From Escherichia coli (GTDB lineage Bacteria; Pseudomonadota; Gammaproteobacteria; Enterobacterales; Enterobacteriaceae): DNA of 64,000 nucleotides. This document shows, one piece after another, positions 15,797-58,791 of this stretch (positions are counted from its first letter, which is position 1; each line of letters begins with the position of its first letter). The position numbers and the translations under genes are program-made. The notes below the pieces were generated by a model. It saw nothing but the letters and a program-made list of their open reading frames with translations, was not told the DNA's origin and searched no databases. Location of the stretch: NCBI RefSeq assembly GCF_013315695.1, contig NZ_CP054353.1; one strand, written 5' to 3'.

Positions 15797-15906
15797 GCGA
15801 GCAGCATTCCTGATTTTAAACGTGAACGTCGTTGGAAGAATTAACAGGTATAGAATGGCGTTGGGTGCTTGAGGCTGTCTGGCGTTAAGCATTCGCGAGG
15901 TTCCAG

Positions 15907-16008
15907 ATGGACAAAAGCCCCAGGCGATATTTCTATCAACCTGAGGCCAGCGTTCGAACCCAAACAATTCGAATGTTAGTCTCTTCTTTGCAGGGAGGCA
16001 AGACATGC
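15907..16008 (+). CDS. mok-like upstream reading frame, translationally coupled to hok
   Basis: 33-codon ORF ([15 protein letters not shown]...GGKTC) with a GAGG RBS; its TGA stop overlaps the hok ATG (ATGCTGA), the arrangement typical of hok/mok loci. Confidence 0.35.
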
Positions 16009-16157
16009 TGACAAAATATGCCCTTGTGGCAATCATAGTGCTGTGTTTTACAGTACTGGGATTCACGCTGATGGTAGGCGACTCGTTGTGTGAGTTGAGT
16101 ATCAGAGAACGTGGTATGGAGTTTAAGGCGGTTCTCGCTTACGAATCGAAGAAGTAG
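16005..16157 (+). CDS. hokX: Hok/Gef-family type I toxin (50 aa), apparently intact
   Basis: [50 protein letters not shown]: single TM helix followed by the conserved SLCE...AYES motif of Hok/Gef; GGAGG RBS; a GC hairpin (CGCGGGG-GTAAAA-CCCCGCG, 16164-16183) lies just downstream. Symbol by position between cysH and cas3. Confidence 0.7.
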
Positions 16158-46085: not shown

Positions 46086-48647
46086 TTACACCAGACTCTT
46101 CAAGCGATAAATCCACTCCAGCGCCTGACGCGGAGTCAGTGAATCCGGGTCGAGGTTTTCCAGTGCCTCGACCGCAGGCGAAGTTTCTTCTGGTACGGAC
46201 AGCAAAGACATCTGCGTGCCATCCACTTGCGTAGCGGCGGCGTTCGGCGAAATGCTTTCCAGCTCACGCAGTTTTTGCCGTGCGCGCTTAATCACCTCTT
46301 TTGGCACGCCCGCCAGAGCAGCAACCGCCAGGCCGTAGCTTTTGCTCGCCGCGCCGTCCTGTACGCTGTGCATAAAGGCGATGGTGTCGCCGTGCTCCAG
46401 CGCATCGAGGTGCACGTTAGCCACGCCTTCCATTTTCTCCGGCAGTTGAGTCAGCTCGAAGTAATGGGTGGCAAACAACGTCAATGCCTTAATCTTATTC
46501 GCCAGATTTTCAGCGCACGCCCACGCCAGCGACAGACCATCGTAAGTGGACGTTCCACGCCCAATCTCATCCATCAACACCAGGCTGTACTCCGTGGCGT
46601 TATGCAGAATATTGGCGGTTTCGGTCATCTCCACCATAAAGGTTGAACGCCCGGATGCCAGATCGTCAGCCGCGCCCACACGGGTAAAGATACGGTCAAT
46701 CGGGCCAATCTCGACTTTTTGCGCCGGTACGTAGCTGCCGATATAGGCCATCAGCGCAATCAGTGCGGTCTGGCGCATATAGGTACTTTTACCGCCCATG
46801 TTCGGACCGGTGATGATCAACATGCGACGCTGCGGCGACAGGTTCAGCGGGTTAGCGATAAACGGCTCATTCAGTACCTGTTCAACTACCGGATGGCGAC
46901 CTTCGGTAATGCGAATACCCGGTTTATCAATGAAGGTCGGGCAGGTGTAGTTCAGGGTATAGGCCCGTTCCGCCAGGTTCACCAGTACGTCGAGTTCTGC
47001 CAGTGCGCTCGCGCTCTGTTGCAACGTTTCCAGATGCGGCAACAGCAGGTCGAACAACTCTTCATAAAGCTGTTTTTCCAGTGCCAGTGCTTTACCTTTC
47101 GAGGTGAGTACTTTGTCTTCATACTCTTTTAGCTCTGGAATAATGTAGCGTTCGGCGTTTTTCAGCGTCTGGCGACGCATATAGTTGATGGGTGCCAGAT
47201 GGCTTTGTCCACGGCTGATCTGAATGTAATAACCATGAACCGCGTTAAAGCCGACTTTCAGCGTGTCCAGGCCAGTACGTTCACGCTCGCGGACTTCCAG
47301 ACGCTCCAGATAATCGGTCGCGCCGTCAGCCAGCGCGCGCCACTCATCCAGCTCTTCGTTATAGCCCGGTGCGATAACACCACCGTCGCGTACCAGCACT
47401 GGCGGTGTGTCGATGATTGCTCGCTCCAGCAGATCGCGCAGCTCGGCAAACTCGCCCATTTTTTCACGCAGCGCCTGTACCGGAGCGCTATCGACATTTT
47501 CTAATAGTGCACGCAGCTCCGGCAGTTGCTGGAAAGCGTGACGCATACGGGCCAGATCGCGTGGGCGAGCAGTTCGTAAAGCCAGACGCGCCAGAATACG
47601 TTCCAGGTCGCCGACCTGACGCAGTACCGGCTGCAGCTCGGCGGTGAAATCCTGCAATGCGCCAATAGTTTGCTGGCGCTCAAGCAACACGCGGGTATCG
47701 CGCACTGGCATATGCAGCCAGCGTTTCAGCATACGGCTGCCCATCGGCGTGACGGTGCAGTCGAGCACAGAAGCCAGCGTATTTTCCGCACCACCCGCCA
47801 GATTCTGGGTGATTTCCAGGTTACGACGCGTCGCGGCATCCATAATGATGCTGTCCTGCTCACGTTCCATAGTGATAGAACGAATATGCGGCAGGGTCGT
47901 GCGTTGGGTATCTTTCGCATATTGCAACAGACAACCGGCGGCACAAAGTCCGCGCGGTGCGTTCTCGACGCCAAAACTGACCAGATCGCGAGTGCCAAAT
48001 TGCAGGTTTAACTGCTGGCGCGCGGTGTCGATTTCAAACTCCCACAGCGGGCGACGACGCAGGCCGCGGCGACCTTCAATCAGCGACATCTCGGCGAAAT
48101 CTTCCGCATACAGTAATTCCGCTGGATTCGTACGTTGCAGTTCTGCCGCCATCGTTTCGCGGTCCGCCGGTTCGCTCAGGCGAAAACGACCGGAACTGAT
48201 ATCCAGCGTTGCGTAGCCGAAACCTTTACTGTCCTGCCAGATAGCCGCCAGCAGGTTGTCCTGACGTTCCTGCAACAGTGCTTCATCGCTGATGGTGCCC
48301 GGCGTAACGATACGGACAACTTTGCGCTCGACCGGCCCTTTGCTGGTCGCTGGATCGCCAATTTGTTCGCAGATGGCAACGGACTCGCCCTGGTTCACCA
48401 GTTTGGCGAGGTAGTTTTCCACCGCATGGTAGGGAATCCCCGCCATCGGGATTGGCTCTCCCGCTGAAGCACCGCGTTTGGTCAGTGAAATATCCAGCAG
48501 TTGCGACGCCCGTTTTGCGTCGTCATAAAACAGTTCATAAAAGTCGCCCATCCGGTAAAACAGCAGGATCTCGGGATGCTGGGCTTTCAGCTTGAGATAT
48601 TGCTGCATCATGGGCGTATGGGCATCGAAATTTTCTATTGCACTCAT
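46086..48647 (-). CDS. mutS: DNA mismatch repair protein MutS
   Basis: 853-aa ORF with Walker [10 protein letters not shown] and the MutS domain series. Confidence 0.95.
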
Positions 48648-49789: not shown

Positions 49790-51868
49790 TTAAATCAATG
49801 CCGATTTATCAATTCCCAGTCGCTTCATCCGTGACAGCAGAGTCGTGCGTTTCAGCCCCAGACGTTGCGCAGCGCCTTTAGGCCCGGCAACCACGCCGTT
49901 TGTTTCTTTCAGCACGCGAACAATCAACTGATATTCATCTTCGCCCTCCTGGGCGACAACCGTTGCGGCAGGCGGCGTTTCAGGTTCTGGTAAAGCAATA
50001 TCTGGCAATGACAGCTGCAGCACGTTGCCGCGTGTTAGCAATACCGCGCGCTCGATGACGTTTTCCAGCTCACGCACGTTGCCCGGCCATTCCATGTTGC
50101 TCAGGATGCGCAGCGTCTCGGCAGGAATGCTGTCGATATTGCGCCCCAGACGACGGGCAATTTTGAAGGTAAAGGCTTTCGCCAGCAGCGGAATATCTTC
50201 CGGACGCTCGCGTAGTGGCGGCAGGTGGATCGGGAATACGTTCAGGCGGTAATAGAGATCACTACGGAACTCTCGGTCGGCGACCATTTTTTTCAGATCG
50301 CGGTTAGTCGCGGCAATTAAACGTACGTCCGTCTGAATGATTTTGTTGCTGCCGAGGCGTTCAAACTCCTGTTCCTGTAATACACGCAGCAACTTCGGCT
50401 GTAACTCCAGCGGCATATCGCCCACTTCGTCGAGGAACAGGGAGCTTTTATCCGCCAGTTCAAAACGACCAATGCGCTGGGCGCTGGCACCGGTAAAAGC
50501 CCCACGCTCATGACCAAACAGATCGCTCTCCAGCAATCCGGCAGGCATCGCCGCGCAGTTCATTTTTACCATGCGGCGATTATTACGCCCACTGAGATTA
50601 TGGATAGCACGGGCAATCAGCTCTTTACCCGTGCCAGTTTCACCGAGGATCAGCACGGTACTGTCACTTTGCGCCACCATTTCAACTTGTTTAAGCACGC
50701 TGTACATGGCTTCGCTGCGGCCAATAATCTCGCCAAATTCACTATCAACATTGTTGAGCTGCTCGGTCAGGGCGAGGTTTTCATCAACCAGCCGTTCTTT
50801 CAGACGATGGATTTCCTGATAGGCGAGGGCGTTATCGACAGCGATTGCCACACGTTCGGCAATCTGGCGCAGTAAATTCAGATTGGTAGTGGTAAACACT
50901 TTCTCTTCGCATTGCGCCAGTTTCAGCACGCCCAGCATGGTGTCGCCAGACATCAGCGGTAACAGGCACAAGGTTTGAATCTGGTTGCCCCAGGTGTCGA
51001 ACAACATGCGTTCATAGGGGGCTAAATCGTCCCGCTCGTGGAGATTAATCAACAGCATCTCTTTACTTTTGAAGACGCGTTCGGTGAGGGTTCCGGCTTC
51101 ATCGACTTCGCTCTGTTCGTGGGCGGGATGCTGTTTATCAAGATAGTGAGTGGAGTAGATGTTGAGTTTGTTTTTACGGTGGCTGCGTAAGACGATGCTG
51201 ATATCGTCAATGTCGAAGTAGTAATGGATTTCTTTGGCGACTTCGCTGACCAGTTCGTCCATATCCAGGCGGGAAAGCACCGCGTTGGTAATGGCAACCA
51301 GGATGCGGAAGTTATCGCGCTCCCGGCATAACAACTCATAGTCGACATTGTTAACGACGCGGCTCTGGATTTGTTCGGTGACGACCGAAACGATCTGCGT
51401 AAATGTTTGCAGACGATTGAACTCTTTTTCGCTCCAGGGGCGATCGTCATAACGAATAAATTCACAGCCACCAAAAATATGCCCTTCCGCCGCCAGTGGC
51501 ATCAGGCAATAGTGACCAAATTTGGGGTATAGTCCACCTGCGGCCAGCTGCGGCCAGGTTTCACAAAATTCTTCGTAACTGCAATGCAGCGTATCAGGGC
51601 GCGACAAAATGCTGCGTACCGGACCGTGTGCCAGAACAGTTTCGTCTTCATATTTAATGGGGGTGTCTTTTTCACGCGACGCGTAATAAGACGCACGTTG
51701 AGTCTGCGCTTGCCACAACACAATAGCCGCGTTGTCGGCGAGCGCAGAACGCTTTACCAGTTGCGAAAGAGCCTCACACAGCGAGGCCAGATCGGGCTGC
51801 TGCAATAGTGTCCGAGTGATGTCGAACAACCCTTGTTGTCCGAGATCACTCATCGGTGTATATGACAT
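49790..51868 (-). CDS. fhlA: Formate hydrogenlyase transcriptional activator (sigma-54 enhancer-binding protein)
   Basis: 692 aa from MSYTPMSDLGQQ...; GAF domains, AAA+ sigma-54 activation domain (GETGTGKE, GAFTGA) and C-terminal HTH. Confidence 0.9.
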   Translation of the reverse strand: MSYTPMSDLGQQGLFDITRTLLQQPDLASLCEALSQLVKRSALADNAAIVLWQAQTQRASYYASREKDTPIKYEDETVLAHGPVRSILSRPDTLHCSYEEFCETWPQLAAGGLYPKFGHYCLMPLAAEGHIFGGCEFIRYDDRPWSEKEFNRLQTFTQIVSVVTEQIQSRVVNNVDYELLCRERDNFRILVAITNAVLSRLDMDELVSEVAKEIHYYFDIDDISIVLRSHRKNKLNIYSTHYLDKQHPAHEQSEVDEAGTLTERVFKSKEMLLINLHERDDLAPYERMLFDTWGNQIQTLCLLPLMSGDTMLGVLKLAQCEEKVFTTTNLNLLRQIAERVAIAVDNALAYQEIHRLKERLVDENLALTEQLNNVDSEFGEIIGRSEAMYSVLKQVEMVAQSDSTVLILGETGTGKELIARAIHNLSGRNNRRMVKMNCAAMPAGLLESDLFGHERGAFTGASAQRIGRFELADKSSLFLDEVGDMPLELQPKLLRVLQEQEFERLGSNKIIQTDVRLIAATNRDLKKMVADREFRSDLYYRLNVFPIHLPPLRERPEDIPLLAKAFTFKIARRLGRNIDSIPAETLRILSNMEWPGNVRELENVIERAVLLTRGNVLQLSLPDIALPEPETPPAATVVAQEGEDEYQLIVRVLKETNGVVAGPKGAAQRLGLKRTTLLSRMKRLGIDKSALI

Positions 51869-55208: not shown

Positions 55209-55559
55209 TCACTCCTGGTCTATTTCTATCCGCCGAATCTGTAAACCGTCGTCTGCCACAATCTGTAGCATGTCACCATGACACTGTGGACAGCGGCGGA
55301 CGCGCTGGGTCAGTAGCGTCACATACTGTTGGCATGTTTCACACCAGCATTCGGCCTCTTGTTCTTCGAGGTGCAGTTTACAACCTTCCGCCACGCTGCC
55401 GCGGCAAACCAGATCAAAACAAAAGGCAAGAGAGCTGGTTTCGACACAAGAAAATGCGCCAATTTTGAGCCAGACCCCAGTTACGCGTTTTGCGCCGTGT
55501 TTTGCGGCCTGCTGTTCGATCAATTCCAGTGCCCGTTGGCAGAGGGTTATTTCGTGCAT
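55209..55559 (-). CDS. hypA: Nickel-insertion protein HypA
   Basis: 116 aa starting MHEITLCQ after a GGGAGG RBS; zinc-finger CxxC...CxxC pairs. Confidence 0.9.
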   Translation of the reverse strand: MHEITLCQRALELIEQQAAKHGAKRVTGVWLKIGAFSCVETSSLAFCFDLVCRGSVAEGCKLHLEEQEAECWCETCQQYVTLLTQRVRRCPQCHGDMLQIVADDGLQIRRIEIDQE

Positions 55560-55590
55560 ATCGCCTCCCATTAACTATTGCCAGCTACAA

Positions 55591-55605
55591 GCAATAATTG
55601 TGCCA
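55591..55605 (-). promoter_or_regulatory. Sigma-54 (-24/-12) promoter for the hyp operon
   Basis: Reverse complement reads TGGCAC-AATTA-TTGC, matching the GG-N10-GC sigma-54 consensus. Confidence 0.5.
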
Positions 55606-55630
55606 GTGTTGATTATCCCTGCGGTGAATA

Positions 55631-55665
55631 ATGTCGATGATGTCGAAATGACACGTCGACACGGC
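55631..55665. promoter_or_regulatory. Candidate FhlA upstream activating sequence (hyp/hyc divergent region)
   Basis: ATGTCGATGATGTCGAAATGACACGTCGACA contains repeated TGTCGA/TCGACA units; a near-identical motif recurs at 56282-56338. Confidence 0.45.
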
Positions 55666-55717
55666 GACGAAATTCATCTTTAGCTTAGAAATTGCTTTAA
55701 TAACAATGAATTAAAAG

Positions 55718-55735
55718 TTGGCACAGAAAATGCTT
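55718..55735 (+). promoter_or_regulatory. Sigma-54 (-24/-12) promoter for the hyc operon
   Basis: TTGGCAC-AGAAAA-TGCTT matches the GG-N10-GC consensus about 40 bp upstream of the hycA ATG. Confidence 0.55.
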
Positions 55736-55770
55736 AAAGCTGGCATCTCTGTTAAACGGGTAACCTGACA

Positions 55771-56232
55771 ATGACTATTTGGGAAATAAGCGAGAAAGCC
55801 GATTACATCGCACAGCGGCATCGTCGCCTACAGGACCAGTGGCACATCTACTGCAATTCGCTGGTTCAGGGGATCACGTTATCGAAAGCGCGCCTGCATC
55901 ACGCCATGAGCTGCGCGCCGGACAAAGAACTCTGTTTCGTCCTTTTTGAACATTTTCGCATTTACGTCACCCTGGCGGATGGCTTTAACAGCCACACCAT
56001 CGAGTATTACGTCGAAACAAAAGATGGCGAAGACAAACAGCGGATTGCGCAGGCGCAACTGAGCATTGACGGCATGATTGATGGCAAGGTCAACATCCGC
56101 GATCGCGAACAGGTTCTGGAACACTATCTCGAAAAAATCGCTGGCGTTTACGACAGCTTATATACCGCCATTGAAAACAATGTGCCGGTGAATTTAAGCC
56201 AACTGGTAAAGGGACAAAGCCCGGCAGCATGA
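55771..56232 (+). CDS. hycA: Formate hydrogenlyase regulatory protein HycA
   Basis: 153-aa ORF, first gene after the sigma-54 promoter. Confidence 0.9.
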   Translation: MTIWEISEKADYIAQRHRRLQDQWHIYCNSLVQGITLSKARLHHAMSCAPDKELCFVLFEHFRIYVTLADGFNSHTIEYYVETKDGEDKQRIAQAQLSIDGMIDGKVNIRDREQVLEHYLEKIAGVYDSLYTAIENNVPVNLSQLVKGQSPAA

Positions 56233-56281
56233 GCTGAGGCTTTGCCCGTTTTGCAGGCGTTACGCCTGTTTGGGGATGGGC

Positions 56282-56338
56282 GTGTCGATGAGTGTCGAAA
56301 ATGACATTTCATCGGCATGTTTTCGTCAAAAATGACAA
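56282..56338. promoter_or_regulatory. Second FhlA-UAS-like motif between hycA and hycB
   Basis: TGTCGATGAGTGTCGAAAATGACA... repeats the 55631-55665 motif almost exactly. Confidence 0.4.
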
Positions 56339-56356
56339 TCACCTGAGGAATGCCTG

Positions 56357-56968
56357 GTGAATCGTTTTGTAATTGCTGACTCCACGCTCTGTATCGGCTG
56401 CCACACTTGTGAGGCTGCCTGTTCAGAGACGCATCGCCAGCACGGCCTGCAATCAATGCCGCGCCTGAGAGTGATGCTAAATGAAAAAGAATCTGCGCCG
56501 CAGCTCTGCCACCACTGTGAAGATGCACCCTGCGCAACGGTCTGCCCGGTTAACGCCATCACTCGTGTTGATGGTGCTGTGCAGTTGAATGAAAGTCTGT
56601 GCGTAAGCTGCAAACTGTGTGGCATCGCCTGCCCGTTTGGCGCAATTGAATTTTCCGGCAGCCGTCCGCTGGATATTCCGGCAAACGCCAATACCCCGAA
56701 AGCGCCACCGGCACCGCCTGCTCCGGCGTGTGTCAGCACATTGCTTGACTGGGTGCCAGGTATTCGCGCGATCGCCGTCAAATGTGACCTTTGTAGCTTT
56801 GATGAACAAGGTCCGGCCTGCGTGCGGATGTGCCCGACTAAAGCCCTGCATCTGGTGGATAACACCGATATCGCCCGCGTCAGCAAACGTAAGCGTGAGC
56901 TGACTTTTAACACGGACTTTGGCGATCTCACCTTGTTTCAGCAGGCTCAAAGTGGAGAGGCTAAATGA
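56357..56968 (+). CDS. hycB: Formate hydrogenlyase Fe-S subunit HycB
   Basis: 203-aa ORF with four CxxCxxCxxxCP ferredoxin-type clusters; GTG start after a GAGGAA RBS. Confidence 0.9.
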   Translation: MNRFVIADSTLCIGCHTCEAACSETHRQHGLQSMPRLRVMLNEKESAPQLCHHCEDAPCATVCPVNAITRVDGAVQLNESLCVSCKLCGIACPFGAIEFSGSRPLDIPANANTPKAPPAPPAPACVSTLLDWVPGIRAIAVKCDLCSFDEQGPACVRMCPTKALHLVDNTDIARVSKRKRELTFNTDFGDLTLFQQAQSGEAK

Positions 56969-58791
56969 GCGCAATTTCCCTGATCAATAGCGGCGTGGCG
57001 TGGTTTGTCGCCGTCGCTGTTCTGGCATTTCTCTTTTCTTTTCAAAAAGCGCTAAGTGGCTGGATAGCCGGAATTGGCGGCGCGGTGGGTAGCCTGTATA
57101 CGGCAGCCGCGGGCTTCACTGTGCTGACTGGCGCGGTTGGCGTGAGCGGTGCGCTGTCGCTGGTAAGCTACGATGTGCAAATCTCTCCGCTTAACGCGAT
57201 TTGGCTGATTACGCTCGGTCTGTGCGGTCTGTTTATCAGCCTCTACAACATTGACTGGCATCGCCACGCGCAGGTGAAGTGCAACGGCTTGCAGATCAAT
57301 ATGTTGATGGCTGCCGCCGTCTGTGCCGTCATCGCCAGCAACCTCGGCATGTTCGTGGTAATGGCCGAAATCATGGCCCTGTGTGCGGTGTTCCTCACCA
57401 GCAACAGCAAAGAGGGCAAACTGTGGTTTGCGCTGGGGCGTCTTGGCACTCTGCTGCTGGCGATTGCTTGCTGGCTGCTGTGGCAGCGTTACGGCACGCT
57501 GGATCTGCGCCTGCTGGATATGCGTATGCAACAGCTGCCGCTCGGTTCCGATATCTGGCTGCTCGGTGTGATTGGCTTTGGTCTGCTGGCAGGGATTATT
57601 CCGCTGCACGGCTGGGTGCCGCAGGCACATGCTAACGCCTCTGCGCCAGCTGCCGCGTTGTTTTCTACGGTAGTCATGAAAATTGGCCTGCTGGGCATTT
57701 TAACCCTGTCACTGCTGGGCGGTAACGCACCGCTGTGGTGGGGGATCGCGCTGCTGGTGCTCGGTATGATCACCGCGTTCGTCGGTGGTCTGTATGCGCT
57801 GATGGAGCATAACATCCAGCGCCTGCTGGCTTACCACACCCTGGAAAATATCGGCATTATCCTGCTGGGGCTGGGCGCTGGCGTAACGGGTATCGCGCTC
57901 GAACAACCGGCGCTGATTGCCCTTGGTCTGGTTGGTGGTCTGTACCATCTGCTTAACCATAGCCTGTTCAAAAGCGTGCTTTTCCTCGGGGCGGGGAGCG
58001 TCTGGTTCCGTACCGGTCATCGCGATATCGAAAAACTCGGTGGTATTGGCAAGAAAATGCCGGTTATCTCCATCGCCATGTTAGTCGGGCTGATGGCAAT
58101 GGCTGCGCTGCCGCCGCTGAACGGTTTTGCCGGGGAATGGGTTATCTATCAATCCTTCTTCAAACTGAGCAATAGTGGCGCGTTTGTTGCCCGTCTTCTC
58201 GGGCCGCTGCTCGCCGTGGGGCTGGCAATTACCGGTGCGCTGGCGGTGATGTGTATGGCGAAAGTCTATGGCGTTACTTTCCTCGGCGCGCCGCGTACCA
58301 AAGAAGCCGAAAACGCCACCTGTGCGCCGCTCCTGATGAGCGTAAGCGTAGTGGCACTGGCGATTTGCTGCGTAATTGGCGGTGTTGCTGCGCCGTGGCT
58401 ACTGCCGATGCTCTCTGCTGCTGTACCTCTGCCGCTGGAGCCTGCTAACACCACCGTTTCTCAACCAATGATCACGTTGCTGCTGATTGCCTGCCCGCTG
58501 CTGCCATTCATCATTATGGCGATTTGCAAAGGCGATCGTTTGCCGTCGCGTTCCCGCGGCGCGGCCTGGGTGTGCGGCTACGACCATGAAAAATCAATGG
58601 TGATTACCGCTCACGGTTTTGCCATGCCGGTGAAACAGGCGTTTGCGCCGGTGCTGAAACTGCGCAAATGGCTGAATCCGGTGTCGCTGGTACCGGGCTG
58701 GCAGTGCGAGGGGAGTGCGTTGCTGTTCCGCCGGATGGCGCTGGTTGAACTGGCGGTGCTGGTGGTGATTATTGTTTCACGAGGAGCCTGA
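56965..58791 (+). CDS. hycC: Formate hydrogenlyase membrane subunit HycC (NuoL/ND5-like)
   Basis: 608-aa polytopic membrane ORF; overlaps the hycB stop. Confidence 0.9.
   Translation: MSAISLINSGVAWFVAVAVLAFLFSFQKALSGWIAGIGGAVGSLYTAAAGFTVLTGAVGVSGALSLVSYDVQISPLNAIWLITLGLCGLFISLYNIDWHRHAQVKCNGLQINMLMAAAVCAVIASNLGMFVVMAEIMALCAVFLTSNSKEGKLWFALGRLGTLLLAIACWLLWQRYGTLDLRLLDMRMQQLPLGSDIWLLGVIGFGLLAGIIPLHGWVPQAHANASAPAAALFSTVVMKIGLLGILTLSLLGGNAPLWWGIALLVLGMITAFVGGLYALMEHNIQRLLAYHTLENIGIILLGLGAGVTGIALEQPALIALGLVGGLYHLLNHSLFKSVLFLGAGSVWFRTGHRDIEKLGGIGKKMPVISIAMLVGLMAMAALPPLNGFAGEWVIYQSFFKLSNSGAFVARLLGPLLAVGLAITGALAVMCMAKVYGVTFLGAPRTKEAENATCAPLLMSVSVVALAICCVIGGVAAPWLLPMLSAAVPLPLEPANTTVSQPMITLLLIACPLLPFIIMAICKGDRLPSRSRGAAWVCGYDHEKSMVITAHGFAMPVKQAFAPVLKLRKWLNPVSLVPGWQCEGSALLFRRMALVELAVLVVIIVSRGA

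Follow-up and report, generated by a model that had tools for sequence, protein, structure and literature searches.

The stretch of DNA analysed here (64 kb from Escherichia coli, hereafter the window) contains the known FhlA/sigma-54 control region of hyc and hyp, a region that is well studied and already described. The genes that frame this region, together with the gene for its activator, are as follows:

55209-55559, minus strand: hypA, which opens hypABCDE-fhlA (annotated in RefSeq on identical E. coli DNA; NCBIfam HypA, E=9.5e-73)
55771-56232, plus strand: hycA, anti-activator of FhlA (RefSeq annotation; NCBIfam HycA equivalog, E=1.3e-90)
56357-56968, plus strand: hycB, the first structural gene past the second enhancer (RefSeq annotation of identical E. 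coli DNA)
49790-51868, minus strand: fhlA (NCBIfam formate hydrogenlyase transcriptional activator equivalog, 1548 bits; the profile starts at ORF residue 13)

The order of hypA (leftward), hycA and hycB (both rightward) is invariably kept, the locus being present in 5425 of 5426 complete E. coli genomes, and about 1.1 kb around the motif region are 100% identical to several E. coli chromosomes. Between this strain and K-12 there are 7 differences in 55560-56356: the FhlA boxes described below have none, and one falls in the N5 spacer of the hyc promoter (P_hyc). The activator gene fhlA is found in the same window, 3' of hypE and transcribed in the same direction as hyp; mutS follows at 46086-48647 (minus strand), about 1.1 kb past fhlA, which is the K-12 order hyp-fhlA-(ygbA)-mutS. 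At 15863-16020 (plus strand) lies the sok antitoxin RNA of a chromosomal hok/sok toxin-antitoxin locus (Rfam RF01794, 111 bits), the sole Rfam match at gathering level within the window.

Divergent sigma-54 promoters of hyp and hyc

Two sigma-54 promoter elements, separated by 113 bp, face outward from the spacer between hypA and hycA:

55590-55605, minus strand: -24/-12 element of the hyp promoter (P_hyp), TGGCACAATTATTGCT; inferred start near 55579
55719-55734, plus strand: -24/-12 element of P_hyc, TGGCACAGAAAATGCT; inferred start near 55745

The element of P_hyp, which lies 31 nt before the hypA start codon, has no mismatches to TGGCAC-N5-TTGCW, and that of P_hyc, 37 nt before the start codon of hycA, has one. 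With an RpoN matrix built from 186 promoters they score 18.6 and 15.4, respectively, and so rank first and second among the roughly 128,000 positions of the window. Published data agree with this assignment: sigma-54 ChIP-seq in K-12 lists sites at both hypA (OS28) and hycA (OS27), each flagged as confirmed (PMC4591121); in Salmonella, the ChIP-chip targets and microarray data include hyc, up 26-fold, and hyp, up 5.6-fold (PMC3844500); and a gSELEX peak for sigma-54 falls in the hycA/hypA spacer of K-12 (PMC8743547). The occupancy by sigma-54 comes from the cited ChIP papers; the sequence elements of the locus, their significance, their conservation and their phasing were observed directly in the present analysis. 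An initial annotation, made from the sequence, had placed outward-facing sigma-54 elements at 55591-55605 (minus strand) and 55718-55735, and the consensus matches, the first two matrix ranks and the ChIP and SELEX data on K-12 and Salmonella all bear it out. A scan of 55450-56450 for sigma-70 promoters and intrinsic terminators returned nothing above the expectation from shuffled sequence.

The two promoters are near mirror images of each other, with about 11 nt of the initial transcribed sequence included: 55579-55605 and 55719-55745 form a 27-nt inverted repeat (78% complementary) that extends past the -12 element to a common GCTGGCA.

Further sigma-54-like sequences are found within the hyc genes. 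The third-best RpoN score in the window (15.0, almost equal to that of P_hyc) belongs to TGGCACATCTACTGCA at 55840-55855 (plus strand), inside hycA; it points in the sense direction, its flanks resemble the hyp promoter (an inverted repeat), and a start near 55866 would give a hycB-I transcript that lacks hycA. The site corresponds to the codons of W24-H25-I-Y27-C28-N29. Elsewhere among the genera, about one quarter of the unique sequences use TGT for the Cys, and His25 is replaced by Arg or Gln; we therefore rejected the site as a conserved third promoter, since it appears to be a side effect of coding for W-H-x-Y-C-N. In the K-12 ChIP-seq data it has no separate entry, but it lies less than 250 bp from two strong peaks (PMC4591121). 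Inside hycC, TGGCGCGTTTGTTGCC at 58176-58191 (plus strand; matrix score 11.2) corresponds to the weak intragenic K-12 ChIP-seq site IS31 (PMC4591121).

Two clusters of FhlA-type repeats flanking hycA

Each side of hycA carries a cluster of TGTCG/CGACA-type repeats, built around a common motif, TGTCGATGA(G)TGTCGAAA(A)TGACA, that occurs at 55632-55653 and again at 56283-56306 (strand is not assigned to these features):

55632-55653: upstream FhlA enhancer, motif copy 1, TGTCGATGA-TGTCGAAA-TGACA
55654-55672: 3' extension of the upstream enhancer, CGTCGACACGGCGACGAAA, with an inverted repeat CGTCG...CGACG and a CGAAAT half-site
56283-56306: box A of the hycA-hycB FhlA enhancer (motif copy 2), TGTCGATGAGTGTCGAAAATGACA
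56320-56337: box B of the hycA-hycB FhlA enhancer, TTTTCGTCAAAAATGACA, 31 bp after box A

Copy 1 consists of a TGTCGA direct repeat 9 bp apart followed by an inverted TGTCG-AAA-TGACA, and box A of a TGTCGA direct repeat 10 bp apart followed by an inverted TGTC-GAAAAT-GACA. An unbiased local alignment between the intergenic regions on the two sides of hycA returned exactly this pair, with 22 of 22 aligned positions identical, two 1-nt gaps and a local score of 17; the scores of 2000 dinucleotide-preserving shuffles had a mean of 8.47 (sd 1.08) and a maximum of 14.5. The only 211-nt chunk of the window that matches the hycA/hycB spacer at this level is the hypA/hycA spacer. The initial annotation, which had claimed a motif on both sides of hycA (55631-55665 and 56282-56338), was by direct reading right to within 1 nt, and the second of these ranges additionally holds the related unit that we term box B.

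Several lines of evidence point to FhlA as the protein that binds these repeats. A 14-nt FhlA matrix, derived from 13 characterised sites (PMC7658346, Table 2), gives its best score in the window at 56293-56306 in box A (17.8) and its second best at 55632-55645 in copy 1 (16.4); the best unrelated score, on both strands of the 64 kb, is 12.65, and box B scores 11.6-12.1 at 56324-56337. The top scores are partly circular, in that these sites are probably in the training set of the matrix, which in turn implies that they are curated FhlA sites. The core of box B (CGTCAAAAATGACA) matches the core upstream of K-12 fdhF (CGTCAAAACTGACG, centred about -103 from the fdhF start) at 12 of 14 positions; the region upstream of fdhF in K-12 also has a repeated TTTCGTCA, and the same TGTCA/TGTCG repeats recur upstream of hydN (TGTCATCACATGTCATCGTCAC...TGTCGATGACA). 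A palindromic 16-mer consensus for FhlA, CATTTCGTACGAAATG, is attributed to Leonhartsberger 2000 and quoted in PMC4987338. Overall it fits poorly: the best match in the region, at 56319, has 5 mismatches. Only half-sites fit: copy 1 contains an exact CGAAATG at 55644-55650, and copy 2 contains CGAAAATG at 56296. With many equal matches elsewhere, a scan for the whole consensus does not discriminate and was set aside. A search of full-text literature, a body that does not extend to the primary footprint papers, returned no passage that places FhlA footprints or names a hycA-hycB site.

Judged from their sequence, we take both clusters to be FhlA enhancers and infer that FhlA occupies each block. 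The proposal that the motifs are FhlA upstream activating sequences (UASs) is upheld in this sense by the two top matrix scores on the copies, by the likeness to fdhF, and by the conservation and phasing in 80 loci presented below. Set against the FhlA UASs of the E. coli formate regulon (fdhF, hyc/hyp and hydN-hypF), this is the same locus in the same organism, with nothing different in kind. The arrangement also resembles the three-site enhancer of NorR at norVW, where likewise several phased inverted repeats lie by a sigma-54 promoter, where multiple repeats are needed to assemble the active oligomer of the enhancer-binding protein, and whose activator shares a GAF-type sensor domain with FhlA (PMC2831303). 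The NorR sites, however, follow the pattern GT-N7-AC and are all grouped directly upstream of a single promoter (PMC2831303), whereas the FhlA sites described here form two clusters about 650 bp apart that flank a gene.

Conservation and helical phasing across the Enterobacteriaceae

A single scan with the HycA alignment over a collection of species-representative genomes provided 80 loci from Escherichia, Salmonella, Citrobacter, Klebsiella, Raoultella, Enterobacter, Lelliottia, Kluyvera, Kosakonia, Pseudocitrobacter and other Enterobacteriaceae. All 80 are arranged as hypA<-|->hycA->hycB, with a hypA/hycA spacer of 188-223 nt and a hycA-hycB spacer that measures 124-146 nt in Escherichia, Salmonella and Citrobacter and 67-97 nt in the rest. 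Across these loci, copies 1 and 2 are on average 84% and 85% identical to their E. coli counterparts; box B, with 93%, is the best-conserved non-coding block of the locus, and the sigma-54 promoters reach 79-81% (P_hyp 81%). The four-fold degenerate sites of hycA, which serve as the neutral comparison, stand at 59%. The 3' extension of the upstream enhancer (CGTCGACACGGCGACGAAA) is weaker and less conserved (53%), the 13 nt between boxes A and B are at 51%, the spacers adjoining copy 1 at 39-40%, and the 5' part of the hycA-hycB spacer at 29%.

Box A was found in every one of the 80 loci, and nearly all genera keep a 10-bp interval between its TGTCGA direct repeats. About 48 loci have boxes A and B 30-31 bp apart and about 21 have them 18-22 bp apart, with no distance in between; since only these two distance classes occur, the spacer changes by whole helical turns, which is a signature of protein assembly on one face of the DNA. 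To our knowledge, no earlier description reports that the hycA-hycB enhancer is the top non-coding block in conservation or that its boxes are spaced by whole turns.

The 5' part of the hycA-hycB spacer holds a structure of its own. Just past the hycA stop codon, at 56244-56281 (plus strand), a stable stem-loop is formed by GCCCGUUUUGCAGGCG-UUA-CGCCUGUUUGGGGAUGGGC (-26.2 kcal/mol for 56225-56282, z=-3.2). In Salmonella and Citrobacter the hairpin is longer, its outer stem being the same and its inner sequence different, and Klebsiella, Enterobacter, Kluyvera and others are without the whole segment of about 50 nt. The hairpin could be a clade-specific mRNA stabiliser, an attenuator, or a palindromic element inserted in the stretch from hycA to the second enhancer.

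These comparisons bear on two other accounts of the repeated motif. That the copies resemble each other by chance, or are a functionless remnant of a recent local duplication, has nothing in its favour beyond the shortness of the motif: chance resemblance is excluded, as none of the 2000 shuffles reached the observed score and both copies are conserved well above neutral sites in the 80 loci, and we rejected recent duplication or gene conversion because a copy resembles its partner in its own species (mean local score 10.85 over 80 loci) no more than copies of two different species resemble each other (10.72), so that the probability left to this account is negligible. One operator architecture occurs here in two separate instances, with no recent duplication, and the unusually close match of the copies in Escherichia reflects the shared specification to which both operators are built. 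The description of the motif as duplicated, as it was first put, is accordingly misleading, although a repeated motif is indeed present. Another account would place the conservation of 56283-56337 at the level of RNA or translation, as an element of the hyc mRNA where hycA and hycB meet (the hycB leader). The block is transcribed within the operon, and the conserved CACCTGAGGA ribosome-binding region follows 2 nt after box B; because box B thus abuts the ribosome-binding site of hycB, part of its conservation could be translational. As an explanation of the whole block this is nevertheless very improbable, since the TGTCG/CGACA palindromes and direct repeats recur in DNA that is not transcribed (the hypA/hycA spacer and the region upstream of fdhF) and since the spacing changes in units of about 10 bp, a constraint of the DNA face; an Rfam scan, moreover, finds no RNA family in the region.

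Probable targets of the two enhancers and their significance

The upstream cluster has the position expected of a sigma-54 enhancer for hyc. Relative to the inferred hyc start, the centre of its motif copy falls at about -98 to -107 (relative to that of hyp, at about -60 to -68), and the upstream enhancer would drive hyc from this canonical distance of about -100, much as the FhlA cluster at fdhF lies about 100 bp before its sigma-54 start. The AT-rich spacer between this enhancer and P_hyc carries one further feature:

55701-55713, plus strand: IHF-like site, TAACAATGAATTA, with one mismatch to WATCAANNNNTTR

Matches to the IHF consensus are as frequent in the window as expected by chance (47 found, 49 expected). 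The CAAT...TTAAAA columns of this site are conserved, a perfect AATCAATnnnTTAAAA being present in many genera; IHF binding at this spacer was reportedly described by Hopper et al. in 1994. The order of enhancer, putative IHF-like bend and sigma-54 promoter is the standard layout and matches that of fdhF.

The hycA-hycB cluster is placed quite differently, at about -721 and -752 from P_hyp and about +540 to +590 from P_hyc. No sigma-54 promoter for hycB follows it (the best RpoN matrix score in 56200-57500 is 9.0), and because there is no such promoter nearby in either orientation, the cluster must act at a distance, by looping; with no sigma-54 promoter about 100 bp away, it qualifies only as a remote enhancer. 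The initial annotation had suggested FhlA input downstream of hycA, which holds insofar as an enhancer is found there and fails insofar as separate control of hycB-I is meant, no sigma-54 promoter following the site. An FhlA site between hycA and hycB was reportedly assigned to the activation of hyp by Schlensog, Lutz & Böck in 1994 and in reviews that the Böck laboratory published later. On the basis of this literature, and of the lack of a nearer promoter, P_hyp is most likely the target of the hycA-hycB enhancer.

Remote action of this kind has precedents. Sigma-54 enhancers may sit inside or beyond a neighbouring gene and loop over hundreds of base pairs, as would be the case here: the NtrC enhancer of glnAp2 still acts by looping when it is moved by up to 3 kb, and the RocR enhancer lies 1.5 kb downstream of rocG (both cited in PMC3844500). 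The activators and motifs in those cases are different, and, unlike them, the remote enhancer described here lies within a divergently transcribed operon of the same regulon.

The same precedents allow for a different target. The hycA-hycB enhancer may act mainly on P_hyc, from its downstream position at about +540 to +590, or on both promoters, with FhlA bridging the two clusters and looping out hycA. Enhancer-binding proteins are indifferent to distance and orientation, downstream enhancers exist (for example, that of B. subtilis rocG, cited in PMC3844500), and the two clusters have a unit architecture in common and are conserved together with hycA in every locus. P_hyc, however, already has the upstream enhancer at the canonical -100, with a putative IHF-like bend site, and the literature reportedly gives the second site to hyp, so that we consider action mainly on P_hyc, or on both promoters, possible if unlikely. 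The more specific proposal that the hycA-hycB enhancer is a shared bidirectional element, which cooperates with the upstream cluster, loops out hycA and serves both P_hyp and P_hyc, we regard as quite doubtful.

We thus favour, with a probability of about 0.88 for the explanation as a whole, the reading that the region is the core of the formate regulon, with divergent sigma-54 promoters and two FhlA enhancers, the second of which acts remotely and most likely on P_hyp. The 113-bp spacer between P_hyp and P_hyc would hold one FhlA enhancer and an AT-rich, IHF-like bend site, and a second and better conserved FhlA enhancer, made up of the phased boxes A and B, would lie between hycA and hycB. 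FhlA activated by formate would bind the TGTCG/CGACA-type repeats on one face of the DNA, oligomerise, loop to the closed complexes of the sigma-54 holoenzyme and open them with the hydrolysis of ATP. The upstream enhancer would serve hyc, and the enhancer between hycA and hycB would serve P_hyp, some 720-750 bp away; through hypABCDE-fhlA, the activation of P_hyp would feed back on fhlA itself.

The initial annotation recovered the textbook regulatory architecture of formate hydrogenlyase from raw sequence, and the main value of the finding is that of a positive control. What the present analysis adds is comparative only: across the Enterobacteriaceae the second enhancer is present throughout, exceeds every other non-coding block of the locus in conservation and is helically phased. 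For the re-engineering of hyc and hyp expression for hydrogen production this is of practical use, as a hycA deletion or a promoter swap in which 56283-56337 is lost would take an FhlA enhancer with it.
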